Positions 25,787 through 40,543 of a stretch of DNA of 64,000 nt are shown here, piece after piece (the first letter of the stretch is position 1; every line of letters starts with the position of its first letter). Source of the DNA: an uncultured Gemmatimonadales bacterium (lineage in GTDB: Bacteria > Gemmatimonadota > Gemmatimonadetes > Gemmatimonadales > Gemmatimonadaceae); assembly GCA_963851265.1 (NCBI GenBank), contig CAWKNZ010000008.1:192001-256000 (forward strand), read 5' to 3'. Under the pieces are notes generated by a model that was given only the letters and a program-made list of their open reading frames with translations, searched no databases and was not told the DNA's origin. Made by a program: the position numbers and the translations under genes.

Positions 25787-28700
25787 ATGTGGCTCGTCCG
25801 ACTCGCGCTCCGCCAGCCGTACACGGTCGCCGTCTTCGCCGCCGTGCTCGTGCTCATGGGCGTGCTCGCCATGAAGAGCATGCTCGTCGACCTGTTCCCC
25901 AACATCGACATCCCGGTCGTCGCCGTCGTCTGGAACTACAACGGACTCTCGGCCGAGGACATGGAGCGGCGCGTCGTGCTGCTCTCCGAGCGCGGCCTGT
26001 CGAGCACGGTGAACGGGATCCAGCGCATCGAGTCGCAGTCGATCCCCGGCATCGGGCTGGAGAAGATCTACTTCCAGCCCGGCATCGACGTCGGCAACGC
26101 GATCGCCCAGATCGCCGCGTCGTCGAGCACGTCGCTGCGCGCGATGCCGCCGGGCATGACGCCCCCGTACATCATCCAGAGCAACGCGTCGAGCGTGCCC
26201 GTGGCGCAGATGACGCTGTCGAGCAAGTCGATCGACGAGGCGAAGATCTCCGACTACGGGCAGAACTTCCTCCGCCTCCGGCTGTTCACGATCCCCGGCC
26301 TCTCGACGCCGGCGCCCTACGGCGGGAAGACGCGCGAGATCACCGTCGACGTCGACCCCGCCAAGCTCGCCAACGCGGGCCTCTCGCCGAGCGACGTCGT
26401 GCAGGCGATTCAGAGCTCGAACGTCATCATCCCCGCCGGCACGGCGCGCCTCGGCGACCGCGAGTACAACGTCGCGCTCAACTCGAGCCCGTCGGCGGTC
26501 GCCGACTTCGCCCACATCCCGATCAAGGTCGTGCGCGGCGCGCCGATCACCGTCGGCGACGTCGCCACCGTGAACGACGGCTACGCCGACCAGACCAACA
26601 TCGTCCGCGTCAACGGCCGGCGCGCGGCGTACCTCTCCATCCTCAAGAAGGCCGACGCGTCGACGCTCACGGTCGTCGAGAGCACGAAGGAGCTGCTCCC
26701 CACGCTGCGGAAGATCGCGCCTAACGGAATGGAGCTGAACCTCGACTTCGACCAGTCGACGTTCGTGAAGGCGGCCGTCGCCGGCGTCGTGCGCGAGGCG
26801 TTCATCTCCGCGCTACTCGTCTCGCTCATGATCCTGTTCTTCCTCGGATCGTGGCGCTCGGTGGTCGTCGCGATCGCGTCGATCCCGCTCGCGCTCGCCT
26901 GCTCGATCATGGCGCTCAAGGCGACCGGGAACTCGTTCAACATCATGACGCTCGGCGGGATCTCGCTGTCGATCGGGCTCCTCGTCGACACCGCGACGAT
27001 CACCGTCGAGAACATCCACCGCAACCGCGGGATGGGGAAGCCGCTCACCGTCTCGATCCTCGACGGCGCGCAGCAGATCGCGCAGCCGGTGATCATGGCG
27101 ACGCTCGCCATCTGCATCGTGTTCTTCCCGGTGGTGCTGCTCGTCGGCCCGGCGCGCTTCCTCTTCGTGCCGATGGCCCTCGCGGTGGTCACGGCGATGC
27201 TCGCGGCGTGGCTACTCTCGCGCACGCTCGTCAAGACGCTCGCGCGCATGCTGCTCGCCGGCGAGCGCGCGCACGGCCAGGGGCACGACGCCGAGGTGGA
27301 CCTGCCGCACGCGAGCGGCTTCTCGCGCCTTTCGCACGCCTTCAACGTGGCGCGCGACCGCTGGTTCGGCCGCTTCCAGGACCGCTACACGGCGGCCCTG
27401 CGCACGCTCGTCGCCCACCGGGCGGTCACGCTGCTCGCGTTCACGGGGCTCGCGGTCGTCAGCTTCTGCCTGCTCCCCCTCGTGGGCCAGGACTTCTTCC
27501 CGAGCACCGACGCCGGGATGATGAAGCTGCACTTCCGCGCCCCGCCGGGGACGCGCATCGAGAAGACCGACTCGCTCGTCGCCGACGTCGAGCGGCACAT
27601 CCGCGCCCTCGTTCCCGCGGGGCAGCTGGAGACGATCAACTCGATGATCGGGCTGCCGTCGCCGCTCTCGCTCGCCTTCGTCCCCACCGACAACACGAGC
27701 GCGATGGACGCCGAGATCCTCGTCGCGCTGAAGCCCGGGCACGCGCCCACCGCGGAGTACGTCGCGAGGATCCGCGACGACCTCGCGAGGAGCTTCCCGG
27801 GGAGCACGGCGTACTTCCAGACGGCCGACATCGTCAGCCAGGTGCTCAACTTCGGACTCTCGGCCCCGATCGACGTGCAGGTGCAGGACAACGACCTGCA
27901 GCAGGGCTACGCCATCGCCAGCCGGCTGGCGACGGCCATGCGGACCGTGCCCGGCGCGGCCGACGTGCACGTCAAGCAGTCGCTCGACTACCCGACGCTC
28001 CGCGTCGAGGTGGACCGCGAGCGCGCCGGCGTGCTGGGGCTCTCGCAGCGCGACGTCGCCAACAGCATGCTCACCTCGCTCTCGTCGAGCGCGGTGGTCG
28101 CGCCGAGCTACTTCATCAACCCGGCCAACAACGTCAACTACCTGGTCGCGGTGAAGACGCCGCTCGCCAACTTCCAGAGGACGTCGGACCTCCTCTCGAC
28201 CCCCGTCACGCCGCAGGGCGGCGGCCTCGGGCAGGGCGCGACGGCGGGGGGCACGCTCGACCGCGCGCCGCAGCCGCTCGACCTGCCGTCCGCGCCCACG
28301 CAGACGCTCGGCAACGTCGCGACGGTGAGCACCCGCGCGGTGCCCAACGAGATCGACCACTCGACCGTGCAGCGCGTCGTCGACGTCGACGCCAACGTCG
28401 AGGGGCGCGACCTCGGCTCCGTGGTCGCCGGCATCCAGGACCGGATCGCCGGGCTCGGCGCGCTCCCGGCGGGTGTCTCGATCGTGGTCCGCGGGCAGGG
28501 CGAGGTCATGCACCAGGCCTTCTCGTCGCTCGCGCTCGGGCTCGTGGTCTCGATCATCCTGGTCTATCTGCTGATGGTGATCATGTTCCAGAGCTGGCTC
28601 GACCCGATCATCATCATGATCGCCGTGCCGGGGGCGCTCGTCGGGATCCTCTGGGCGCTCGCGATCACGGGGACGACGATCAACGTCGTCTCGCTCATGG

Positions 28701-29146
28701 GCTCGATCATGGCCGTCGGGATCGCGGTCTCGAACTCGATCCTGCTCGTCAGCTTCGCCAACGACCAGCGCGTCGAGCTGGGGATGGACGCCGTCTCGGC
28801 CGCGATCGAAGCCGGACGGACGCGCCTCCGCCCGGTGCTGATGACCGCGCTGGCGATGGTCCTCGGCATGCTGCCGATGGCGATCGGCACGGGCGAGGGC
28901 GGCGAGCAGAACGCCCCGTTAGGCCGCGCGGTGATCGGCGGACTCGTCGTCGCGACGATGGTCACGCTGCTCGTCGTCCCGGCGGCGTACGCCGCGCTGC
29001 GCAAGGCGATCCCCGGCAAGCACCTCCTCGAGGCGCGGTTCCGCGCCGAGGCCGACGGGCGCGAGGGCGACGGCGCCGACGCCGCCCACGGCGCGTCCGG
29101 GCCGCCGCGCGAGCCGCACGGCGGGCTCGTGCCGGCCGCCGCCTGA
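25787..29146 (+). CDS. RND efflux permease (AcrB/AcrD/AcrF family)
   Basis: FPNIDIPV, LLVDTATITVEN, FFPSTDAG, RLRPVLMTA, APLGRAVIGG. Confidence 0.92.
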   Translation: MWLVRLALRQPYTVAVFAAVLVLMGVLAMKSMLVDLFPNIDIPVVAVVWNYNGLSAEDMERRVVLLSERGLSSTVNGIQRIESQSIPGIGLEKIYFQPGIDVGNAIAQIAASSSTSLRAMPPGMTPPYIIQSNASSVPVAQMTLSSKSIDEAKISDYGQNFLRLRLFTIPGLSTPAPYGGKTREITVDVDPAKLANAGLSPSDVVQAIQSSNVIIPAGTARLGDREYNVALNSSPSAVADFAHIPIKVVRGAPITVGDVATVNDGYADQTNIVRVNGRRAAYLSILKKADASTLTVVESTKELLPTLRKIAPNGMELNLDFDQSTFVKAAVAGVVREAFISALLVSLMILFFLGSWRSVVVAIASIPLALACSIMALKATGNSFNIMTLGGISLSIGLLVDTATITVENIHRNRGMGKPLTVSILDGAQQIAQPVIMATLAICIVFFPVVLLVGPARFLFVPMALAVVTAMLAAWLLSRTLVKTLARMLLAGERAHGQGHDAEVDLPHASGFSRLSHAFNVARDRWFGRFQDRYTAALRTLVAHRAVTLLAFTGLAVVSFCLLPLVGQDFFPSTDAGMMKLHFRAPPGTRIEKTDSLVADVERHIRALVPAGQLETINSMIGLPSPLSLAFVPTDNTSAMDAEILVALKPGHAPTAEYVARIRDDLARSFPGSTAYFQTADIVSQVLNFGLSAPIDVQVQDNDLQQGYAIASRLATAMRTVPGAADVHVKQSLDYPTLRVEVDRERAGVLGLSQRDVANSMLTSLSSSAVVAPSYFINPANNVNYLVAVKTPLANFQRTSDLLSTPVTPQGGGLGQGATAGGTLDRAPQPLDLPSAPTQTLGNVATVSTRAVPNEIDHSTVQRVVDVDANVEGRDLGSVVAGIQDRIAGLGALPAGVSIVVRGQGEVMHQAFSSLALGLVVSIILVYLLMVIMFQSWLDPIIIMIAVPGALVGILWALAITGTTINVVSLMGSIMAVGIAVSNSILLVSFANDQRVELGMDAVSAAIEAGRTRLRPVLMTALAMVLGMLPMAIGTGEGGEQNAPLGRAVIGGLVVATMVTLLVVPAAYAALRKAIPGKHLLEARFRAEADGREGDGADAAHGASGPPREPHGGLVPAAA

Positions 29147-29177
29147 CCGCGCCCCCGCCGTCCAACACCCGCCCGCC

Positions 29178-30386
29178 ATGATCGAGCCCGTCTCCATCCA
29201 GCCCCGGCGCGCGCCCACCCCGCGCGGCCTCGTCTTCGGCAGCGTCGCGCTCGTCGGGGTCGCCGCCGGGACCGTCGTCCTCATCGCCGCGCGCCGGAAC
29301 GCGAGCGTGCACCGCGAGGCCACCGCGCGCACCGCGGACGTCGCCCGCGGCGTCGTGGTGCGCGCGGCCGCGGTGACCACCTCGCCCGCCGTGCGCCACC
29401 TCGCGCTCATCGGCGAGGCGCGGCCGTACGCGGAAGTCACGCTTTACGCCAAGGTGAGCGGGTACCTGCAGAGCATCCGCGTGGACCGCGGCGACCGGGT
29501 GCGCGCGGGCCAGGTGCTCGCCACGGTGCAGAGCCCCGAGACCGACCGGGCGCTGGCCGGGGCGCGGGCGGAGTTCGAGCAGAAGAACGTGACCTCGCAG
29601 CGCATGGGCCAGCTGCTCGCGCAGCAGTTCGTGTCCAACCAGGAAGCCGACCAGGCGCGGGCCGACGCCGAGGTCGCGCGCCAGCGGATGAACGCGCTGG
29701 CCGAGGAGCGCGGGTACGAGACGCTGCGGGCCCCGTTCGACGGCACGGTGACGGCGCGCTTCGCGGACCCGGGCGCGCTCATGCAGAACGCGGCGTCCTC
29801 GCAGACGGCCGCGCTCCCCGTGGTCACCGTGAGTCAGCTCGACCGCTTACGGATCTTCGTCTACCTCGACCAGGCCGACGCGGCCGCGCTGCGCACCGGC
29901 GCGCTCGCGACGATCACCGAGAACGACCGCCCCGGCGTGCAGGTTGCGGCGCGCGTCACGCGCGTGAGCGGCACGCTCGACCCGCGGACGCGCAAGATGC
30001 TCGCCGAACTCGACCTCGACGACCGCAACGGGCAGATCGTGCCGGGCGCGTTCGTGCAGGTCACGCTCGACCTGCCCACCGTTCCGCACCCCGAAGCGCC
30101 GGTGGACGCGCTGATCACGCGCGGCACGGCGAGCTACGTCGCGCTCGTCGACAGCACGGCCGGCGCGAGTGGCGCGGGCGGCCCGGCCGCGGACGGCACG
30201 GCCAGCGCGCGGCTGCACCTGGTGCCGGTGACCGTGGCCGGCAACGACGGGAAGCTGGTCACGTTCTCGAGCGGCGTGGCGGCGGGGCAGCGGGTCGCGC
30301 TCAACGCCGCGTCGCTCGCCGACGGCGCGCGCGTGCAGCTCGCGCGCGACAGCACCGCGGTCGCGGCGCGCGGGACGACGCCGTGA
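29178..30386 (+). CDS. RND efflux periplasmic adaptor subunit
   Basis: N-terminal TM, YAKVSGY, GDRVRAGQVLA, APFDG-x-VT, PGAFV. Confidence 0.9.
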   Translation: MIEPVSIQPRRAPTPRGLVFGSVALVGVAAGTVVLIAARRNASVHREATARTADVARGVVVRAAAVTTSPAVRHLALIGEARPYAEVTLYAKVSGYLQSIRVDRGDRVRAGQVLATVQSPETDRALAGARAEFEQKNVTSQRMGQLLAQQFVSNQEADQARADAEVARQRMNALAEERGYETLRAPFDGTVTARFADPGALMQNAASSQTAALPVVTVSQLDRLRIFVYLDQADAAALRTGALATITENDRPGVQVAARVTRVSGTLDPRTRKMLAELDLDDRNGQIVPGAFVQVTLDLPTVPHPEAPVDALITRGTASYVALVDSTAGASGAGGPAADGTASARLHLVPVTVAGNDGKLVTFSSGVAAGQRVALNAASLADGARVQLARDSTAVAARGTTP

Positions 30387-31942
30387 GGGCGCGCCGCATG
30401 TTGGGCGCGGCGCGCGGCGCGGCACTGCTCGCGCTCGGCGTGCAGGCGTCGCGTGCGGTCGCGCAGGCCGCGCCGCGGCCCGCCGCGCAGGGTGCCGTCT
30501 CGCCGGCCGCGGCGCGGGTCGTCGGCGCGCCCGGCGACACGCTGCGCGTCACGCTGGAGCAGAGCGTCTCGACGGCGCTCACGCGCGCGACGCCCGTCCT
30601 GACGGCGCAGGAGGACGAGCGCGCCGCGGCGGCGACCGTGCTGCGCGCCTACGGGCAGTTCCTGCCCACGCTCTCGGGGATCGGCAGCACGTATTCCGAG
30701 ACGGGCAACCCGCTGCTCTCGTCGACCGCGCTCCTGCCCACCAACACCACGCTGTACGGGCTCAACGTCGGCCTGTCCACGACCTACACGCTGTTCAACG
30801 GCACGCGCGACCGCGCCGCGCTGCGCGCCGCCGTCGCCCAGCGCGAGGCCGCCGGCCTCACGCTGGGCCGCGCGCGCCAGGAGATCGCCTACGACGTCAC
30901 GAACGCGTACTACCAGGTGGTACTCGACGACCGGCTCGCGACCGTGGCGCGGACGACGCTCGACCTCTCGCGCAGCCGCGAGGCGCAGCTGACGGCGCAG
31001 GTGCGCGCCGGCATGCGGGCCCCGCCCGACCTCTACCGCCAGCAGGCGCAGACGCGCGCCGACGAGGCGGCGGTGATCGCCGCCGACAACCGCGGCGACG
31101 CGGACCGCATCGCGCTGCTGCGGCGGTTGCGGTTCGACCCCGCGCGGCCGGTGGCCGTCTCGCTCCCGCCGGTCGCCGCGGACGGCACGCCCGCGCCGTT
31201 CGCGGCGAACGCGGCGCCCGGCGCCCGGCCCGACGCGGTGCCTGACGGGTCCCCGGCCGGCGCGACGACGCCCCCCGTGGCGACCGCGGCCGACGTCGCC
31301 GCGCTCGAACGCGAGGCGCTCGCCGCGCGCCCCGACCTCAGTGCCGCCGCGGCGCGGCACCGCGCGGCGGACCAGCAGCTCCGCTTCGCGCACGGCGAAC
31401 GCCTGCCGTCGATCGGCATCGAGTTCGACCTCGTCGACCAGGCACGCCTGTTCGGACGCGCGGTGCAGAACGGCCAGAACCTGCTCGCGCCGGGACAGCG
31501 GAGCCCGTTCTCGCAGCTCGGCTCGCAGGTGGCCGGGCTGCTCTCGCTCGGCGTGAACCTGCCGATCTTCGACCGCCACCAGGCGCGCGCCGACGAGGAG
31601 CGCGCCCGGGCCCTCGAGGAGCGGAGCGAGGTGGCCGAGGCGGACGTGCGGGACCGCATCGTGGGCGAGGTCGCGCAGGCGGCGGCCGACATCCGCGCGG
31701 CCGACCTCACGGCGCAGGCCGCGGCCGCGCAGGTGGCCGCGGCGGACAAGGCGTTCGCCGCCGTGAGCGGTCGCTACGAGGTCGGGATGGCGAACTTCAT
31801 CGACGTCGCGAGCGCGCAGACGGCGCTCGCGCAGGCCCGCGTCCAGCGCGAGCAGGCGACGGTCAACCAGTCGCTCGCCCGCGCCCGCCTCGGCCTCGCC
31901 ACCGGGCGCGGGGTGGCGGGCGCCGGGCGGGCGGCGCCGTGA
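30383..31942 (+). CDS. TolC family outer membrane protein
   Basis: Signal peptide, LPTL, AYYQV, RPDL, LPIFD, RYEVG; GTGA overlap. Confidence 0.88.
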   Translation: MRARRMLGAARGAALLALGVQASRAVAQAAPRPAAQGAVSPAAARVVGAPGDTLRVTLEQSVSTALTRATPVLTAQEDERAAAATVLRAYGQFLPTLSGIGSTYSETGNPLLSSTALLPTNTTLYGLNVGLSTTYTLFNGTRDRAALRAAVAQREAAGLTLGRARQEIAYDVTNAYYQVVLDDRLATVARTTLDLSRSREAQLTAQVRAGMRAPPDLYRQQAQTRADEAAVIAADNRGDADRIALLRRLRFDPARPVAVSLPPVAADGTPAPFAANAAPGARPDAVPDGSPAGATTPPVATAADVAALEREALAARPDLSAAAARHRAADQQLRFAHGERLPSIGIEFDLVDQARLFGRAVQNGQNLLAPGQRSPFSQLGSQVAGLLSLGVNLPIFDRHQARADEERARALEERSEVAEADVRDRIVGEVAQAAADIRAADLTAQAAAAQVAAADKAFAAVSGRYEVGMANFIDVASAQTALAQARVQREQATVNQSLARARLGLATGRGVAGAGRAAP

Positions 31943-32280
31943 CGGCGCGCGTGACGGCGCGCGTGACGGCGCGCGCGCCCGCGATGCGCTGCTTCACCGT
32001 GCGCGCCCGCGTCGTCGCCGCCCTCGGCAACGGCCAGATCGACGCGCTCCGGGCGTCGCTCGAGGCGCTCGCCGCCGCGCGCGACCTGCGGCTCGACGGG
32101 ACGTGGGCGCCCGAGCCGTCGTTCGTGCTGCACCGCGGCGGGCATGCGGTGCACGACGCCGACCGGCGCGCCACGGCCGCGTGGGCGGCGACGCGGCGCG
32201 AGTTCGTCGACTACACCGTCGGGCCGCTCGCGCGCGGCGACGGGCGGGTCGCGGTGGGCGCGGACGGGGGGGACGCCTAA
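31939..32280 (+). CDS. Small hypothetical protein, YggL/DUF469-like
   Basis: GTGA overlap with tolC; F-x-V...QID...L-x-x-DG...DR...W...VGPL pattern; start could be ATG 31984. Confidence 0.5.
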   Translation: MTARVTARVTARAPAMRCFTVRARVVAALGNGQIDALRASLEALAAARDLRLDGTWAPEPSFVLHRGGHAVHDADRRATAAWAATRREFVDYTVGPLARGDGRVAVGADGGDA

Positions 32281-32289
32281 CGCCCCGGG

Positions 32290-32640
32290 TCAGGGGATGA
32301 GGTGCATCAGCGCGCCCGCCGCGGTCGCGATCGCCGTGGCCGCGCCCGCGGCGCTGGTGATTCCGGTCAGGAGTCCACGCAGCGTCGGGCCGTCCGGCTT
32401 CTCGGCGGCGGCCTCGCGCGTCACCGCGGCGGCGCGCTCGCGCACCGCCGCCTCGTCGGCGGACGCCGGGCCGTAGCGCGCCACCGCGTCCTCGAGGTCG
32501 CGCACCCGCCGCGCCAGCTCGCCCGGATCGGCCGCCGGGCCCCCGCTCGACAGGCGCACGCCCGAGACGCGCTCGGCGATGACCTGGTTGGTCGCGGACA
32601 CGGTGCTGCCCGAGATGTGGACGCCGCCGGACGAGGACAT
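32290..32640 (-). CDS. Small hypothetical protein: N-terminal beta/amyloid-like motif plus helical bundle ending in a hydrophobic helix
   Basis: RBS GGAG, GC3-rich codons, 28 bp downstream of its co-oriented partner gene. Confidence 0.75.
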   Translation of the reverse strand: MSSSGGVHISGSTVSATNQVIAERVSGVRLSSGGPAADPGELARRVRDLEDAVARYGPASADEAAVRERAAAVTREAAAEKPDGPTLRGLLTGITSAAGAATAIATAAGALMHLIP

Positions 32641-32668
32641 GGAAGCTCCGATGTGTTAGGCGGACGCC

Positions 32669-34216
32669 TTATGCGGCCGCGGTGGTGACCGACTGCGCCG
32701 CCGTCTTGACGGACTGCGCGGCGGTCTTGACGCTGTTCATCGTGGCCGTCGCGCGGCCCCCCAGGACGACGTTGTCGCCCTCGATCTTGCTCTGCGAGAC
32801 GATGACGCCCGTGTTGAGGATCGTGTCGCGGCGCCCGATCAGCTCCGCCGTGTCGATGTCCTTCGCGTCGAGGAAGTCGGTGACGGCCTCGAGGATCTGA
32901 CGCTCGAGCAGCTTCGCGTGCATCTCCTGGTCGACGCGCTGGAAGTAGCGCCGGTAGTCCGCCGACGCCGCGGTTTCGCGCACCGACTTTCCGGCCCCGT
33001 AGTCGTACTCCAGGTTGTCGTCGATGCGCCGCCGGCGCTCGCGCTCCGCCGTGCGGCGGCCTAGCCGCTCCTGCAGCGCCGCGGTGGCGCGGAGGTACGC
33101 CGCGGCGGCCGAGAACGGCGCGAGCACGACCGCGACGATGCCGAGTCCGAACATCTCGCCGACGCGAGCGTCCTTCCGCAGCGCGTCGACCTTGTGGTAC
33201 GACTCGTGGATGGGCGGCAGCAGGTACTTGTTAACCTCGACGAACAGATTCGAGCCCTGGCGCACGCAGCGCAGGAACATCGTCACGACCAGCTCGCCGT
33301 CCCAGCTCGTGCTCTGCACGCACCGGTACGCGCGGATGCGCGGGTCGGCCCGCTCGGTGAGCGCGTGCACCTGCTCGGCGGGGATGCTCACCGAGGGCGC
33401 GGCGTACGGCGACGGCAGCAGCTGACGGTCGTCTCGGACGTCGCGCCCGTTGACGTACGCGACGGGGTCGAACGTGACGTGCGGCAGCCCCAGCCCCACG
33501 AGCGACTGCTCGACGCAGTCGTAGAGTTCGTGCACCGCGAACGGGCGGGGCGAGCAGCAGCCGTCGAGCATGCGCTTGCCCTTGGTGACGTTGAGGGCGA
33601 ACGACCAGCGCTCGACGAGGACCCCCGCGCCGACGAACGGCGTGAAGCCGCTGTAGACCACGAGATTCTGGCGCGCCTGCTCGCCGCACCGGGCGATGAG
33701 GGGCGCGTACTGCGCGGACGCCGGGGGGAGTGGCGCGCCGGCGAACGCGCGGCGCGACAGCCCCGACGCGATCGCGCCGAAGCGCGGGCTGTAGTCGCGG
33801 GCGAAGACGATCGCCGCCAGCACGGCCCACGCGGTGACGAGGGCGGGCACCACGTTCTGCGCCCCGATGAGCACTTCCGTCGCGAGCACCACCGCCGCGC
33901 CGCCGATGGACGCGAGGATGAGCCAGAGCGCGAACGACCGGTCCCGCCGGTCGGCCGCCGCGCAATGCGCCGCGACGGTTTGCAGGTCCACGCCGTACTC
34001 GGGCGCGGTGGCCGCGTGCTCGCGCCGGCGCACACGGTCGAGCACGTCGCGGCGGAACGCCGCGTTGGTGTACGCCGCGATCGCGAGCAGTCGCGTCGCC
34101 TCGCTCCCCGCACGCGGCGCGGCCGGAGCGGGCGGCGCGGCGGTCCCGGGTGCGGGCGCACCGCTCGCGCGCGGCGTGTAGGTGAACACGTCGTCGGACT
34201 GCGTGGGCATCGGCAT
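32669..34216 (-). CDS. Hypothetical membrane protein (515 aa) with a C-terminal amyloid-like motif
   Basis: RBS GGAG before ATG 34216; two N-terminal TM helices, a third hydrophobic segment, globular-looking core; the longer 1171-aa ORF overlaps czcA and is spurious upstream. Confidence 0.8.
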   Translation of the reverse strand: MPMPTQSDDVFTYTPRASGAPAPGTAAPPAPAAPRAGSEATRLLAIAAYTNAAFRRDVLDRVRRREHAATAPEYGVDLQTVAAHCAAADRRDRSFALWLILASIGGAAVVLATEVLIGAQNVVPALVTAWAVLAAIVFARDYSPRFGAIASGLSRRAFAGAPLPPASAQYAPLIARCGEQARQNLVVYSGFTPFVGAGVLVERWSFALNVTKGKRMLDGCCSPRPFAVHELYDCVEQSLVGLGLPHVTFDPVAYVNGRDVRDDRQLLPSPYAAPSVSIPAEQVHALTERADPRIRAYRCVQSTSWDGELVVTMFLRCVRQGSNLFVEVNKYLLPPIHESYHKVDALRKDARVGEMFGLGIVAVVLAPFSAAAAYLRATAALQERLGRRTAERERRRRIDDNLEYDYGAGKSVRETAASADYRRYFQRVDQEMHAKLLERQILEAVTDFLDAKDIDTAELIGRRDTILNTGVIVSQSKIEGDNVVLGGRATATMNSVKTAAQSVKTAAQSVTTAAA

Positions 34217-34518
34217 ACGGAACTCCACCTCGCGGCACGTGGATGCGCCGACGGTTGCCCGGCACTGGTCGCGTGCCGGGTTCCGGGGGCGGGGCGGGCA
34301 CGGCCAGACTCGCGACCGGCGCCGCCCCGCAGGCGCAGCGCCACTGTTGCAACCGATCGGAAATCGCGCCAGACCTCGGGGCCCGTGCGCGCAAGTCGCA
34401 AACGGCGATTTATGTCCGCGCCACGACGCTGCTACGTGATATTGCGCACAGTCGCGTGGCGCGAGCCGCCGTGCGGAGCCGGGCCCGGCGGCACGCGCGC
34501 GGCGAGCCCCGCCGTGCC

Positions 34519-37500
34519 TTACGCGGGCTCGGCGCGCACCGCGGCGGCGATCGCCGGCACCGCGGGGCGGGCGGGCCTCGCCTCCGTACCGCCGCCCGTC
34601 TCGGGCGCGGCGCCCGCGCCCGGCCGCTGCCCCGCCCCGCCCCGGTCGTGCCGCCGCTCCGCCCACCCGATCACGGCGCGGTACAGCACCGGCAGCAGGA
34701 ACAGCGTCAGCGCCGTGCTCGTCAGCAGCCCGCCGATCACGACCGTCGCGAGCGGCCGCTGCACCTCGCTCCCGGGCGTCGACGAGATCGCCATCGGCAC
34801 GAAGCCGAGGCTCGCCACGAGCGCCGTCATCAGCACCGGTCGCACGCGATCGCTCGCGCCCATCCGCACCGCCTCGTCGACGTCGTGCCCCGGCTCGCCG
34901 TCCAGCCCCTGCCGCAGTGCGTTCACGTGCGACACGAGGACGACGCCGTTGAGCACCGCGATCCCGAACAGCGCGATGAATCCGACGCTCGCCGAGAGCG
35001 ACAGGTTGAGGTGGCGCAACCACAGCGCCGCGACGCCGCCGACGAGCGCGAACGGAACGTTGGTCAGCACGAGCGCCGTCTGCAGCACCGAGCGGAACGA
35101 GGCGTAGAGCAGCAGCACGATCAGCCCGAGCGCGAGCGGCACCACGACCCGCAGCCGCTGCATCGCGCGCTGCTGGTTCTCGTACTGCCCGCCCCACTCC
35201 AGGAAGGTGCCCGACGGGATCGGCACCTCGCGCGCCACGCGCGCGCGCACCTCCGTGACGAAGCTGCCCAGGTCGCGCCCGCGCACGTTCGCCATCGCCA
35301 GCGTGCGGCGCTGCGCGTCCTCGTGGCTGATCTGCTCGGGGCCGGTCTGCGGCACGACGTCCGCCACCGCCGAGAGCGGCACCACCGCGCCCGTGGTCGG
35401 GCTGCGGAGCAGGAGGTTGGCGAGCGCGCCCGGGTCCTGCTGCTGCGCCGCCGGGTACCGGACGGCCACGCCGATCCGCCGCGGCCCGTCGACCATCTCG
35501 GTCGCGACGTCGCCGCCTAACGCCATGTTCACCGCGTCGCGCACGTCGGCCACCGACAGGCCGTAGCGCGCGAGGTCGGCGCGCCGCACCGAGACCTGGA
35601 GCTGCCCCGTCCCCTCGCTCACCTCGACCGACACGTCGGCCGAGCCGGGCACGGTGCCGAGCACCCCCCGGATGCGGTTGGCGATCTGCTCGTTCCGCTC
35701 CAGACTGGGGCCCACCACCTTCACCCCGAGGTCCGTGCGGATCCCGCTCTCCGCCTCGTCGAGCCGCATCGCGAGCGGCTGCGTGAAGCTCACCCACAGC
35801 CCCGGCACGCTCTTCAGCGCCGAGTCGAACGCGGCGATCATCCCCTCGGGGTCCTTCGCCGTCTTCCACTCGCCGCGGTCCCGGAGCGTCACGTACTGGT
35901 CGCCCTCGTAGAGTCCCATCGCCTCGGTCGCGAGGTCCGGACGCCCTTCCTTCGTGACGACCGAGAGCACCTCCGGAAAGCGCCGCACGATCCGCTCCGA
36001 CTCGAGCGAGAGCTTGGTCGCGTCGGCGAGCGACACGCTCGGCAGACGCCGGGTGTTGATGAGGATCGCCCCCTCGTCGAGCTTCGGCATGAACTCGGTG
36101 CCGATCCGCGTCAGCGACCACGCGGCGCTCACCGCGAGCAGGACCGCGACCGCGGTGATCACCTTCCCGTGCCGGATGCTCCACTCCAGCGCGCCCGCGT
36201 AGCGGTCGCGCAGGCGCGATTCGAGGCCGGAGGCGCCGCTCTTCCCCACGGCGCCGTCCTTTTCGCGCGCGCCGGAATCGCCCGCCTTCTCCTTCGGCGC
36301 CTTCAGCAGCGCCGCCGAGATGGTCGGCACGTACGTGAGGGCGAGCAGCAGCGAGCCGAGCACGGCACAGACGACCGTGAAGGCCATCGGTTTGAACATC
36401 CGCCCTTCCATCCCCTCGAGCGTGAAGATGGGGATGTACACGGCGACGATGATCGCGATGCCGAAGAGCACCGGCCGCCCGACCTCGACGGCCGCGTCGC
36501 GGAAGAACGCCGCGCGCGCGTCCGCGTCGTTCGCGTCCGGCGGGGCCTTCTCCATCCGGTGCACGAAGTTCTCGACCATCACGATCGCGCCGTCGACGAT
36601 CAGCCCGAAGTCGAGCGCGCCGAGCGACATCAGGTTGGCCGAGTAGCCGAACAGGTACATCCCGCCGAACGCGATGAGCATCGAGAGCGGGATCACGCTC
36701 GCCACGATGAGCGACGCGCGCACGTTGCGCAGGAACAGGAAGAGCACCGCGATGACGAGAATCCCGCCCTCGAGCAGATTCTTCGTGATCGTGTGCGTGG
36801 TGCGCCCCACCAGCTCGGTCTGGTCGTAGAACGGTACGATGTGCACGTGCTTCGGCAGCGCCGAGCGGATCTCGTCCATGCGCGCCTTCACCGCGTCGAT
36901 CACCCGGCGGCTGTCGGCGCCCTGGAGCTTGAGCACCATGCCCGTCACGACCTCGCCCTTGCCGTTCTGCGTGACCGCGCCGTAGCGCGGCATCCCGCCG
37001 TCCTGCACCGTCGCCACGTCGGCCACGGTCACGGGGGTACCCCCCGGATTCGCGATCACCACCTGCCCGATCTGGGCCGCCGACGTCAGCCGCCCCACGC
37101 CCCGTACGGTGTAGCGGGTTCCGGCGCGCTCCAGGTACGGCCCGCCGAACGACAGGTTGTTGTCCGCGAGCGCCTTACTCACGTCTCCCATCGTCAACCC
37201 GCGCGCGACGAGCCGCGCGGGGTCGACCTCGACGTGCATCTGTTCGATCAGCCCGCCCCACGAGTTCACGTCGCTCACGCCCGGCACCGTGCGCAGCCGG
37301 GGGCGGATCGTGTAGTCGTGGAGCGCCTTGAGTTGGATGAGCGACATCGAGTCGCTCGTCACCGTGTACTGGAACAGCTCGCCCATCGGCGTCGACAGCG
37401 GCCCCATCGTGGCCTCGACCCCCGCGGGCAGCGCGTTCTTCGCCTGCGCCAACCGCTGTTCCACCAGCGTGCGCGCGAAGTACACGTCCGTCCCGTCGGG

Positions 37501-37788
37501 GAACGGCACGGTGATGATCGTCAACCCCGTCTTGGACGTCGACCGGACCCCGGTCACGCCGGGGAGTCCCATCAGCGCCGACTCGAGCGGGTACGTCACG
37601 AGCTGCTCGACCTCCTCGGGGGCGAGCCCGGGCGCGGTGGCCGACACGTCGACGCGCACCCCCGTGAGGTCGGGGTACGCGTCGAACGGGATGCGCAGGA
37701 GCGCGAACAGGCCGAAGGCGACGACCGCGAGCAGCCCGCCGACCGTCACGATCCGATTCTTCAGGACGAACCCGATCAGCTTGCGCAT
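34519..37788 (-). CDS. czcA: CusA/CzcA family heavy-metal efflux RND permease
   Basis: DAYPD, APEEVEQLVTYPLE, NLMSLGALDFGLIVDGAIVMVEN, GTEFMPKLDEG, GSEVQRPLATVVIGG. Confidence 0.93.
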   Translation of the reverse strand: MRKLIGFVLKNRIVTVGGLLAVVAFGLFALLRIPFDAYPDLTGVRVDVSATAPGLAPEEVEQLVTYPLESALMGLPGVTGVRSTSKTGLTIITVPFPDGTDVYFARTLVEQRLAQAKNALPAGVEATMGPLSTPMGELFQYTVTSDSMSLIQLKALHDYTIRPRLRTVPGVSDVNSWGGLIEQMHVEVDPARLVARGLTMGDVSKALADNNLSFGGPYLERAGTRYTVRGVGRLTSAAQIGQVVIANPGGTPVTVADVATVQDGGMPRYGAVTQNGKGEVVTGMVLKLQGADSRRVIDAVKARMDEIRSALPKHVHIVPFYDQTELVGRTTHTITKNLLEGGILVIAVLFLFLRNVRASLIVASVIPLSMLIAFGGMYLFGYSANLMSLGALDFGLIVDGAIVMVENFVHRMEKAPPDANDADARAAFFRDAAVEVGRPVLFGIAIIVAVYIPIFTLEGMEGRMFKPMAFTVVCAVLGSLLLALTYVPTISAALLKAPKEKAGDSGAREKDGAVGKSGASGLESRLRDRYAGALEWSIRHGKVITAVAVLLAVSAAWSLTRIGTEFMPKLDEGAILINTRRLPSVSLADATKLSLESERIVRRFPEVLSVVTKEGRPDLATEAMGLYEGDQYVTLRDRGEWKTAKDPEGMIAAFDSALKSVPGLWVSFTQPLAMRLDEAESGIRTDLGVKVVGPSLERNEQIANRIRGVLGTVPGSADVSVEVSEGTGQLQVSVRRADLARYGLSVADVRDAVNMALGGDVATEMVDGPRRIGVAVRYPAAQQQDPGALANLLLRSPTTGAVVPLSAVADVVPQTGPEQISHEDAQRRTLAMANVRGRDLGSFVTEVRARVAREVPIPSGTFLEWGGQYENQQRAMQRLRVVVPLALGLIVLLLYASFRSVLQTALVLTNVPFALVGGVAALWLRHLNLSLSASVGFIALFGIAVLNGVVLVSHVNALRQGLDGEPGHDVDEAVRMGASDRVRPVLMTALVASLGFVPMAISSTPGSEVQRPLATVVIGGLLTSTALTLFLLPVLYRAVIGWAERRHDRGGAGQRPGAGAAPETGGGTEARPARPAVPAIAAAVRAEPA

Positions 37789-39155
37789 CAGCCGCCTCCC
37801 TCCCCGCCGCCCCCGCCGCTGCGCTGGTCGCGCCGGCGCTGGATTTCGGCCTTCGCGATTCCCGCCCCTTCCGTCACGACTGCGGCGCCCGGCGCGAGCC
37901 CGGCGACGATCTCGGCCAACCCCTGCGCACGCCGTCCCGCGCGCACGGGGAGGGCCTGCAACACCACCCCGCCGGCGTTGCCCGGCCCCGGCCGCTGGGT
38001 GACGACCACCGTATCGCCCTGGAATTCCTGCACCGCCGCGTCCGAGACGGCGAGCACCGATGCCCCGGCCGTCCCGAGCAACTCCGCCGCCGCGGTCATC
38101 TCCGCCTTCAACTCGCCGCGCGCGTTCGGCACGGTCGCCAGCACCTCCGCCGTGCGCGACGCCGAGTCGAGCGCCGGCGCCACGCGCACCACGCGCGCCG
38201 TGAAGGCGCGGTTCGGGTAGGCCGGCACGGTGAACCGCACCGTCGCGCCCACCCGCGCCGCGCCGAGCGCCTGCTCGGGGAGCCGCATCATGAGCCCGAG
38301 CGTGCCGAGCCGCCCGACCGTGACGAGCGGCGCGCCGACCGCCACGACGCTGCCCGGCTGCGCGTCGCGGGTCGTCACCACGCCGTCGTACGGCGCGCGC
38401 ACGAGCACCTCGTGCTCGTCGACGCCAGCCGGGATGGGCCCGCGGCCGACCAGGTGCGCCACGTACTCATTCGCGTACGACAGCTCTGCGTCCGCGCGCG
38501 CCGACGACGCGCGCGCGTCGGACTGCGCGTTGCGCGCGCGCTCGAGATCGGCGAGCGCACCCGCTTTCGCCGCGTACAACCGCTCGGCGCGCGCCGTGGC
38601 CGATTGCGCGTAGCGCAGGTCGCTCGCCGCCTGCGCCTTGGTGGCCTGCGCCTGTGCCAGCCGGTTCCGCGCGTCGAGCATCTCGTCGCTGTGCAGGATG
38701 ACGAGCACCTGGTCGCGCCGCACGCGGTCGCCCGGCTGCGCGAGCACGCGCACGACGCGCCCCTCCACGATGCTGCCCAACGGCTGCGTGGTGGTCGGGT
38801 CGAGCACGAGGCGCGCGGGAGCCGCCCACACGGCGCGCCACGGCACGAGGCGGGCGGTGTCGGTCTTGAACCCGGCCACGCGCGCGGCCTCGGCGGTGAG
38901 GAGCGCGGTGTCGGGCACGTTCGCGGCGGACGCGGGCGCCCCGGCGCCCTTCCCCGTGCCCTTCGCGTCGCCCTTCGCGTCGCCCTTCGCCGCGCCCTTC
39001 GCATCGCCGCCCTTGTCGGCCCCCTTGTCCGCGGCGTTCGTGCCGCCGGCGGACTTGGCCTCGCCCTTTCCGCACGCGGCGGCACACGCGAACGCCAGGA
39101 CGGCGCCGCGCCGCGCGTGCAGCGCGGCCGCGCGGAGGAATCGTGTCAGCATCAT
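37788..39155 (-). CDS. CzcB-like periplasmic adaptor subunit
   Basis: Lipobox-like AAAC, EGRV...GDRV, APYDGVV, LDSASRT; between OMF and czcA with overlapping start/stop codons. Confidence 0.88.
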   Translation of the reverse strand: MMLTRFLRAAALHARRGAVLAFACAAACGKGEAKSAGGTNAADKGADKGGDAKGAAKGDAKGDAKGTGKGAGAPASAANVPDTALLTAEAARVAGFKTDTARLVPWRAVWAAPARLVLDPTTTQPLGSIVEGRVVRVLAQPGDRVRRDQVLVILHSDEMLDARNRLAQAQATKAQAASDLRYAQSATARAERLYAAKAGALADLERARNAQSDARASSARADAELSYANEYVAHLVGRGPIPAGVDEHEVLVRAPYDGVVTTRDAQPGSVVAVGAPLVTVGRLGTLGLMMRLPEQALGAARVGATVRFTVPAYPNRAFTARVVRVAPALDSASRTAEVLATVPNARGELKAEMTAAAELLGTAGASVLAVSDAAVQEFQGDTVVVTQRPGPGNAGGVVLQALPVRAGRRAQGLAEIVAGLAPGAAVVTEGAGIAKAEIQRRRDQRSGGGGGEGGG

Positions 39156-40543
39156 TTCGTCAGCGTCGTAGCGGGGGCGGCCGGGGCGCCGGTCGCGCGC
39201 TCCAAATCCAGGCGGGCGAGGCGCAAGTCCGCGGCCCACCGCAGCGCAGCGGCGCGCACGTCGCCGCGCGACCGCACGGCGTCGAGCAGTTCGAGCAGCG
39301 TGGCGGCCCCCTCGCGGTACGCCACCTCGGTCACCGCGGCCACGTCGCGCCCGCGCGCGTCGAGCGACGCCGCGTTCAGCGCGCCCCCACCGGACGTCGC
39401 CGCGCCCCCGCTCTCAGCCAGAAGCGTCGCGTACGCGCGCACCCCGGCCTCGACCTCGGCGGTCACCTGGGCCTCCGCGGCGCGCAGGTCGTTCTCGGCG
39501 GCCACGAGATCGCCCGCGGCGCGCGCCCGCCCACCCTGGTTGCGGTCGAACAACGGCACCGAGACGTACACGCCGACGAGGCCGGTGTTCGCAGCGGCGG
39601 TGCGCTTGTACCCCGCAACCCCGCCCACGCCGGGGCGCCCGCCGAGCCGCTCGACGCCCGCGCGACGCTGCGCTTCGACGAGGCGCGCGCGGGCCGCGAC
39701 GACCTCGGGGCGTTGGCGGAGCGCGGCCTCGACGAGCGCGCGCGCGTCCGGCTCGGGCTGGTACTCGGCGGCAGCACCGGCACCGCCGCCGACGGCGGTG
39801 CCCGCGTAGGCGACCGTGCGCACCGCGGGCGCGCCGCCCGGCACGTCCACCGGGTCGGTGGGCCACGGTACCCGGTCGAGCGGGAGGGCGAGCGCGCGCG
39901 CGAGGTCGCCACGCGCGCGCTCTGCGTCGGCGCGCGCCGTGGCCGCGACGAGCCGCAGACGCGCGGCTTCGAGCTGCGTGCGCATCGCCGCGCCTTCCGC
40001 GATCGCGCCCTCGCGCGCGCGCCGCACCTGCACGGTACTGAGGCTGTCGAAGGCCTGTCGCTGCGCGTCGGCCACGCCGCGGAGGGCGACCGCGAGGGCC
40101 GCGCGCCAGTACGCGCGCGCCACGTCGTACTCGACCGTGCGCGCCGTCGTGGTCGAGTCGGCCGCGGCGCGCGCGGCGACCGCGCCGACGAGCCCGCGCA
40201 GCGCGTACCGGCGCCCGTACGCATCCACGCCGAGAGCCGCGGTGACGAACTCGTCGGGTGCGATGGGACCGCCGATGTTCTCGCGGCGGTACTCGAGCGT
40301 GGGGTTGAGGAAGGCCGCGTCCTGGCGCGCCTGGCCCACGGCCGACTGCCGGCGACCGCCCGCGGCCCGAAGCGCCGGATGCTCGCCGCGCGCCATGGCG
40401 AGCGCGTCGGCGAGCGAGAACCCGTCCTGCGCGACGGCGGGCCGGAGCGCGGCGGCGAGCAGCACGACGAGCAGGGCGGCACACGCGGCCGCCGACCGGC
40501 GAGGGGCGCGCGGTCGGAACGGGCGCAGACGAGGACTCCACAT
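39152..40543 (-). CDS. CzcC-like TolC family outer membrane protein
   Basis: Signal peptide, NP-x-L, VPLFDRNQG, AY-x-EG...LLELLDA. Confidence 0.88.
   Translation of the reverse strand: MWSPRLRPFRPRAPRRSAAACAALLVVLLAAALRPAVAQDGFSLADALAMARGEHPALRAAGGRRQSAVGQARQDAAFLNPTLEYRRENIGGPIAPDEFVTAALGVDAYGRRYALRGLVGAVAARAAADSTTTARTVEYDVARAYWRAALAVALRGVADAQRQAFDSLSTVQVRRAREGAIAEGAAMRTQLEAARLRLVAATARADAERARGDLARALALPLDRVPWPTDPVDVPGGAPAVRTVAYAGTAVGGGAGAAAEYQPEPDARALVEAALRQRPEVVAARARLVEAQRRAGVERLGGRPGVGGVAGYKRTAAANTGLVGVYVSVPLFDRNQGGRARAAGDLVAAENDLRAAEAQVTAEVEAGVRAYATLLAESGGAATSGGGALNAASLDARGRDVAAVTEVAYREGAATLLELLDAVRSRGDVRAAALRWAADLRLARLDLERATGAPAAPATTLTK

Follow-up and report, generated by a model that had tools for sequence, protein, structure and literature searches.

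Two adjacent genes in a 64,000-nucleotide stretch of DNA from an uncultured Gemmatimonadales bacterium (GenBank assembly GCA_963851265.1, contig CAWKNZ010000008.1, positions 192,001 to 256,000; "the window" below means this whole stretch) encode a 515-residue membrane-anchored protein, P0001, and a 116-residue partner, P0002. The C-terminus of the first protein shares a short motif with the N-terminus of the second. The recurrence of this pairing over more than 100 other bacterial loci, with both copies of the motif changing in step, suggests a form of amyloid-type cell-death signalling that has not been described before. In the reading that we favour, P0001 would be the sensor and P0002 its effector, and the motif would couple the two.

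The shared motif and its pairing across bacteria

Related loci were sampled from reference genomes (80) and metagenomes (80), the former coming from Actinomycetota, Acidobacteriota, Cyanobacteriota, Chloroflexota, Pseudomonadota, Bacteroidota and Nitrospinota. After exclusion of loci that were not evaluable (6 genome and 7 metagenome) or had too little flank (1 and 6), a motif-bearing partner gene was found beside the large gene in 129 of 140 loci: in 69 of 73 from genomes, where hits are circular since the partner motif profile was built from this set, and in 60 of 67 from metagenomes, which, like the pair-specific scores below, are independent of it. Most genome-set partners (65 of 69) lie directly downstream of the large gene, two lie upstream on the same strand and two upstream in divergent orientation. 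In the cyanobacterial-type loci (L017, L020, L044, L050, L106, L107, L113, L115 and L117) the small gene stands upstream of the large one, either co-oriented, about 490 nucleotides ahead, or divergent, at about 150 nucleotides. The pairing is therefore independent of any one gene order or of translational coupling. Across 48 diverse loci only these two genes recur, save for their antisense shadow open reading frames (ORFs) and one upstream gene in 6 loci. Four genome loci and seven metagenome loci had no partner at the thresholds used; among the former, weaker matches (31-32) stand where a partner would be expected in L018 and L040, the tail of L029 is truncated, and L045 may have its partner upstream. 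In one divergent subgroup of large proteins (L043, L150, L151, L153, L154 and L158) the tail is of the form NKGIWIG instead of NNGVIVSGG. The downstream ORF bears the matching variant IWIGGDQ in L154 and L158; no partner was found in L043, L150 and L153, and L151 has too little downstream flank.

The C-terminus of the large protein has the consensus ILNNGVIVxGGxxxAxNxAVGxxA, a motif of about 24 residues in the family. Across 41 homologues N468 is invariant, and I466, G470 and G486 are each conserved in at least 90%. The motif is made up of G (20.6%), A (16%), V (11.1%), N (9.7%), I (7.6%) and Q (5.5%), with very little P (0.3%), K (2.5%) or L (2.7%). Within loci the two copies resemble each other beyond this common pattern. 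In 59 of 68 loci the large protein's motif scored higher against its own partner than, on average, against partners from loci whose large proteins are less than 50% identical, with a mean excess of 17 points, and in 30 of the 68 the own pair fell in the top tenth of scores. Alignment of both motifs in register, with N-x-G and the hydrophobic residue after it as the anchor, left 121 pairs, of which 100 were distinct. Among these, own pairs were identical at 10.69 of 24 positions compared with 7.86 of 24 for permuted pairs (standard deviation 0.2, maximum 8.51); none of 1000 permutations reached the own-pair value, and, as related loci are not independent, separate co-variation events are far fewer than 100. 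The excess is spread over motif positions 6-21. At least seven lineages (L076, L080, L042/L058, L124, L158, a Micromonospora group and L032/L046) carry a variant of their own on both proteins. The variant tracks the sensor, not the type of effector: the PNP_UDP partners of L076/L080 and those of L134/L138 each bear the motif variant of their own sensor.

In the window, residues 470-488 of P0001 (GVIVSQSKIEGDNVVLGGR, positions 32753-32809) and residues 6-24 of P0002 (GVHISGSTVSATNQVIAER) form the best ungapped 19-residue match between the last 70 residues of the large protein and the first 50 of the small one, with 7 of 19 identical and a BLOSUM62 score of 30. Taken alone, this match is marginal; it is accepted as real on the ground that it falls in register with the family-wide motif. 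Of the 44,235 ORFs in the window's genome, that of P0002 is the top hit, a weak one (E 0.29), of a motif profile made from partner N-termini at other loci. Both genes are single-copy in that genome, where no other motif-bearing protein was found. A preliminary description, made from the sequence alone, had reported the motif at these residues and had looked to its conservation in homologues, to the adjacency of the genes and to pairwise co-variation; the motif was recovered as reported, and the other three hold in the family, co-variation being evident at family level and not in the window pair.

The membrane protein

No Pfam, NCBIfam or PADLOC match to P0001 was found at E ≤ 1, and the absence of an NTPase or repeat domain, which had been supposed at the outset, is thus borne out for Pfam and NCBIfam at that threshold. 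The family itself is large: a profile of the 17 homologues in a word-indexed protein collection retrieved 2618 representatives of clusters formed at 50% identity at E ≤ 0.001, 1460 of them at E ≤ 1e-30, and its members occur in at least seven phyla. The ESM Atlas returned unnamed clusters only, with no common Pfam family, and a PDB sequence-profile search gave nothing meaningful for the alignments of either protein.

An AlphaFold2 model of P0001 based on 41 sequences (predicted local distance difference test, pLDDT, 87.3; predicted template modelling score, pTM, 0.83) begins with an N-terminal helical region (residues 39-64), followed by a long helical hairpin (residues 78-152) with a hydrophobic core (residues 99-139) that would serve as the membrane anchor. 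Then come a central alpha/beta domain, a long helix and a C-terminal helical domain, with two further helices within residues 424-469, which leads into the motif (Table 1). The majority of the family's invariant residues fall within the alpha/beta domain (N184, Y188, S189, G190, P193, F194, V195, G196, G257, R295, W305 and P335). The modelled domain appears to be new: it has no PDB match at E ≤ 0.001, and there are weak START/helix-grip rows (E 0.02-0.1, probability ≤ 0.41).

Of 30 long forms of the large protein that were scanned, 10 have an FHA domain fused to the N-terminus (P0003, P0020, P0025, P0044, P0065, P0070, P0075, P0115, P0117 and P0131), and other long forms, of about 750-870 residues, have a multi-transmembrane N-terminal extension in its place. 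FHA domains are cytoplasmic input domains, and these additions are hints of phospho-threonine or membrane inputs. The hairpin has basic flanks and a short outer loop. The third hydrophobic stretch, at the start of helix 352-400, averages 1.46 K+R per 19 residues over 41 homologues and is basic on both flanks, and no partner has room for a signal peptide ahead of its motif. Because of the FHA fusions, the basic flanks, the K and R residues in the third stretch and the partners without signal peptides, the C-terminal domain is placed in the cytoplasm; the bulk of P0001 and its C-terminal tail most likely lie there, with the hairpin in the inner membrane. None of the 150 representatives listed of the 2618 has a C-terminal effector fusion, the match ending within about 45 residues of the C-terminus, and a search for fused forms of 1393-3975 residues found none, which is weak evidence.

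Two further observations concern single members of the family. Residues 476-588 of P0025, in the long-helix region of this homologue, give a sub-threshold match to Pfam Anoctamin (25.5 bits; cut-off 28) that probably reflects helix composition. In a Caldilineaceae metagenome-assembled genome (L015:3099-6524) two large-gene paralogues stand in tandem, and a small partner was not found there at the thresholds used.

The small partner and its exchangeable bodies

Behind its low-confidence N-terminal segment, P0002 is modelled by AlphaFold2 as four helices (residues 39-55, 63-78, 84-98 and 102-114) at a pLDDT of about 90. The last 22 residues scored, in which one His is the sole charged-type exception, have a mean Kyte-Doolittle value of 1.25, and the short helical bundle with an apolar end that the preliminary description had drawn is recovered. 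A direct homologue search with P0002 returned only itself, and its family emerged solely through gene neighbourhoods; Foldseek of the model against the PDB gave generic helical bundles only (best E 0.71). P0002 matches Pfam DUF5955 (PF19380) at 21.5 bits and E 3.2e-4, under the gathering cut-off of 27.1; among 67 partners at related loci, DUF5955 has a match at E ≤ 0.01 in 41, and 12 reach the cut-off. A profile made from the partners of other loci, to which the window did not contribute, in turn matches residues 36-116 of P0002 at E 6e-17. By transitive homology P0002 thus appears to be a divergent relative.

A DUF5955-like body, the type that includes the window's partner, was found in 102 of 129 partners. 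Behind the same N-terminal motif other partners carry TIR_2, PNP_UDP_1, EAD11 or DUF7379 / alpha/beta hydrolase bodies (Table 1), and several more are interrupted by contig ends. The EAD11 partners suggest that the signal is passed on once more, to an effector whose gene lies elsewhere.

Proposed mechanism and alternative explanations

We propose a two-gene sensor-effector module in which the large protein would be anchored in the inner membrane by its helical hairpin. Its C-terminal motif, predicted to be disordered, has much G, N, V, I, A and S and hardly any proline among its roughly 24 residues, and it recurs at the partner's N-terminus. A trigger of the membrane protein, likely its clustering, would gather the tails, which would co-assemble with the partner's motif, most likely as a stacked, amyloid-like beta-arch as in the BASS and HET-s systems. 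This co-assembly would oligomerise the partner and so switch it on. In the window the partner, a DUF5955-like bundle, would be the output, perhaps acting on membranes, and is read as such because of its position in the system; in relatives the output would be a TIR, PNP_UDP or hydrolase domain or an EAD11 adaptor. On balance we consider it probable that trigger-induced co-assembly of the tails oligomerises the partner, with about two thirds of that confidence given to templating, amyloid-like assembly.

Two likenesses argue for this view. The shared element resembles an amyloid signalling motif in length, terminal position, composition and predicted disorder, and the genetics of the system, with adjacent genes, matched variants and exchangeable outputs, is also that of amyloid signalling. 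The analysis shows that the genes are adjacent, that the motif is shared and co-varies, that partner bodies are exchanged and that both motifs are predicted to be disordered; we infer that the two proteins bind directly, that an amyloid fold is templated, which way the signal runs, where the tail lies and that the outcome is cell death or defence. The interpretation as amyloid signalling already offered in the preliminary description therefore stands in part: conservation, adjacency, co-variation and swapped partner bodies are in its favour, and its placing of a non-NLR membrane partner in a pair of reversed polarity is correct for the window and for all partners found, while neither a PADLOC match nor a clear defence island accompanies it. 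More tentatively, the family may be a widespread prokaryotic branch of amyloid signalling that is independent of NLRs, in which a prion-like fold at the C-terminus of unannotated membrane sensors would template the N-terminal motif of exchangeable effectors, and DUF5955 would be a mirror-image Bell/HeLo executioner with its apolar helix at the C-terminus.

Several results weigh against the proposed mechanism. The window pair is the weakest example in the family: its BLOSUM62 score of 30 was reached by 45 of 2000 shuffles of the first 50 residues of P0002, it has no own-pair excess (own score 30, mean with partners from distant loci 26.8, rank 24 of 67), and the family profile of the C-terminal motif misses P0001's own motif at E ≤ 10. 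At family level, the circularity of the genome-set count has already been mentioned. Eight motif segments searched with Pfam RHIM gave nothing at E ≤ 10, a search in which the HMMER filters drop most weak matches. Links to defence are also sparse. PADLOC-DB 2.0.0 has no match to P0001 or P0002 at E ≤ 1, and no defence island is apparent from a PADLOC scan of 77 neighbouring ORFs in low-GC related loci, where the 11 neighbours matched are mostly generic (ABC ATPase, permease, methyltransferase, nuclease, helicase). Phage records gave no match, and the 2 matches in plasmid records are both on megabase-size replicons. The last helix of the small protein is amphipathic across the DUF5955-like family (mean Kyte-Doolittle 0.95, with 2.24 charged residues per 22), because of which its membrane-damaging role would be one of analogy. 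Finally, the third hydrophobic helix is modelled as one long helix; were it truly to span the membrane, the tail would end up on the outer side, separated from a partner that lacks a signal peptide. A complex prediction with residues 401-515 of P0001 and P0002 scored 0.00 compared with a mark of 0.32, was run without controls and speaks neither for nor against binding. The distribution of the large gene supports an accessory, horizontally spread module: among 401 genomes sampled from the phylum it was found in that of the window alone, as expected for such a module.

The motif might instead be a plain docking tag, that is, a stable, non-propagating beta-zipper that parks the effector on the membrane protein until release or a change of shape activates it, with a logic like that of EADs. 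The pairing, co-variation and effector-swap data fit this possibility as well as they fit templating, and it would also accord with the EAD11 adaptor as one partner class, with the missing RHIM match and with a composition in which alanine is as enriched as asparagine and glutamine is modest. Counted against it, TIR effectors need self-association, which polymerisation would supply. The composition, length, lack of proline, terminal position and disorder of the motif match those of amyloid signalling motifs, as far as these are described in the part of 10.1101/2020.01.06.895854 covered here. Docking and templating cannot be separated by sequence; we regard docking as somewhat unlikely, and as the most serious of the alternatives. 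A reversal of roles, in which the membrane protein would be the executioner, as a channel or a platform that disrupts membranes, and the variable small proteins would regulate it or act as its sensors, is improbable. The sub-threshold Anoctamin match of P0025 may be noted in favour of a channel, though it is probably due to helix composition. Against this reading, the channel-like matches span a helical hairpin only and fall within the common range of the tool; the FHA and multi-transmembrane N-terminal additions resemble input modules; and the outputs of the amyloid pairs described in the same source (10.1101/2020.01.06.895854) are typically TIR, PNP_UDP and hydrolase domains. That the window resemblance arose by chance between two low-complexity ends of functionally unrelated genes, as the shuffles and the lack of an own-pair excess could suggest, is very improbable and already contradicted by the family data, given that the match sits in the family register, that the P0002 motif is the top hit in its genome, that its helical part belongs with the partner family and that the pairing holds in nearly all evaluable loci.

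Comparison with known systems

The papers compared here were each covered in part, and the likenesses and differences below apply to those parts. The closest parallel to the proposed sensor-effector module is the set of Bell/NLR pairs with motifs BASS1-10 (Dyrka et al. 2020). They too have adjacent genes that share a terminal, G/N/V/I-rich and proline-poor motif of 20-25 residues, a small helical protein as the commonest partner with TIR2 or an alpha/beta hydrolase as alternatives, and lineage-specific motif variants matched within pairs. TIR2 and alpha/beta hydrolase domains are reported with bacterial BASS motifs, and PNP-UDP and alpha/beta hydrolase domains with fungal amyloid motifs (10.1101/2020.01.06.895854). 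The BASS bias consists of an enrichment of G, N, Q, V and I and a depletion of P, K and L (10.1101/2020.01.06.895854); the present motif fits it in its excess of G, N, V and I, its depletion of P and its low content of K and L, while its enrichment in A lies outside the bias described there. In contrast to the Bell/NLR pairs, the receptor here is membrane-anchored and has no NB-ARC or NACHT domain and no repeats. The polarity also differs: in Bell/NLR pairs the effector bears the motif at its C-terminus and the NLR at its N-terminus (10.1101/2020.01.06.895854), whereas here, in the window and in all partners found, the motif is at the C-terminus of the receptor and the N-terminus of the effector. 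The small partner is DUF5955-like and apparently not Bell: Bell and HeLo-type executioners have a hydrophobic helix with a conserved signature at the N-terminus and the motif at the C-terminus, and here the layout is mirrored, with the motif first and the apolar helix last.

A non-NLR sensor is already known from the Bab/Agp antiphage system of E. coli (Ibarlosa et al. 2024, 10.1101/2024.11.07.622273), in which BASS11, an amyloid motif of about 20 residues common to both proteins, allows it to drive a small helical executioner; this motif also occurs with TIR and EAD-type domains. The module described here is similar in its non-NLR sensor, small helical partner and shared motif, as seen from the genes. 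It differs from Bab/Agp, whose sensor is soluble and whose motif has the polarity of the Bell/NLR pairs, at the receptor N-terminus (10.1101/2024.11.07.622273), in that its sensor is a membrane protein of another family and its polarity is reversed. In the fungal NWD2/HET-S, HRAM, sigma and PP pairs the receptor templates the motif on an effector encoded by the adjacent gene (10.1101/2020.01.06.895854, 10.1101/2024.11.07.622273, PMC13506858). PNP_UDP and alpha/beta hydrolase effectors occur there as alternatives to pore-formers, as they do among the present partners; unlike these, the fungal pairs are eukaryotic, NLR-driven and of opposite polarity.

A further parallel lies outside amyloid signalling. 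The EADs of nucleoside triphosphate-dependent conflict systems are homotypic adaptors common to a core protein and to exchangeable effectors encoded nearby, and they are folded helical domains. The shared element here, unlike an EAD, would be a short, disordered motif of beta type, and EAD11 forms the body of the partner in L013 and L014. In the literature covered, outside which lie most subscription journals and supplements, there was no description of a membrane sensor or of reversed polarity, and DUF5955 appeared in no paper; term searches of PMC7159879 and PMC8195603 gave nothing relevant.

The locus in the window

The two genes are co-oriented on the minus strand with a 25-nucleotide gap, and on either side of them lies an RND efflux operon that looks complete. 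The P0001 gene begins 302 nucleotides beyond the end of the minus-strand pump gene. G+C is 74-78% throughout, and the gene pair is unremarkable in composition. A promoter and terminator scan of 32100-34600 found zero sites. Convergent with the P0002 gene is an ORF for 113 residues (31939-32280, plus strand), whose first 4 nucleotides are also the last of the OEP gene. It has no Pfam match and opens with a tandem ARVT repeat, MTARVTARVTARA; in DNA of 75% G+C it may not be a real gene.

Table 1. Features of the gene pair in the window (window positions) and partner bodies at related loci (locus numbers)
Feature	Location	Strand	Details
P0001 gene	32669..34216	-	515-residue membrane-anchored protein; constant partner, presumed sensor
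Transmembrane helical hairpin core	33800..33922	-	P0001 residues 99-139; very short outer loop
Central alpha/beta domain	33182..33706	-	P0001 residues 171-345; presumed input domain
Long helix, 49 residues	33017..33163	-	P0001 residues 352-400; first 19 hydrophobic here, amphipathic in many homologues
C-terminal helical domain, leading into motif	32810..33004	-	P0001 residues 405-469; conserved FDYGA, SxRE, YRRYFQ, DTSEL
Shared motif, large protein	32744..32815	-	P0001 residues 468-491, family register N-x-G-V-I-V-S ... N-x-x-x-G; residues 471-495 pLDDT <50
Ribosome-binding site GGAG	32646..32649	-	7 nucleotides ahead of P0002 ATG, inside the 25-nucleotide spacer
P0002 gene	32290..32640	-	116-residue partner; N-terminal motif, then DUF5955-like four-helix bundle; presumed effector
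Shared motif, small protein	32560..32631	-	P0002 residues 4-27, family register; residues 1-33 pLDDT <50
Four-helix bundle	32299..32526	-	P0002 residues 39-114, ending in Ala/Gly-rich apolar helix
ACR_tran, HlyD, OEP genes (RND efflux)	25787-31942	+	One flank of the pair
ACR_tran, HlyD genes (RND efflux)	34519-39239	-	Other flank of the pair
TIR_2 partner body	L012, L110, L111, L112, L121, L139		Up to 67 bits
PNP_UDP_1 partner body	L076, L080, L134, L138, L140		Scanned; up to 88 bits
PNP_UDP_1 partner body	L141, L142		Assigned by equal length and locus similarity
EAD11 partner body	L013:4868-5254, L014:5398-5784		68 bits
DUF7379 / alpha/beta hydrolase partner body	L018
Weak TIR-like partner body	L006

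Implications

Amyloid-type signalling between adjacent genes is known in bacteria, in the parts of the sources covered, from NLR/Bell pairs and from Bab/Agp, whose sensor is soluble and not an NLR. The module described here would add a very large new class of membrane-anchored receptors, the opposite motif polarity and a likely role for DUF5955. The motif also offers a search handle, as proteins that start with a sensor's own tail variant are candidate outputs. With two genes and a coupling element of 24 residues the system is small, and if the amyloid step holds, it would be a tractable model of a switch from a membrane event to cytoplasmic polymerisation. If true, amyloid-switch immunity would operate at the membrane, and well beyond the multicellular bacteria in which BASS motifs were first described.

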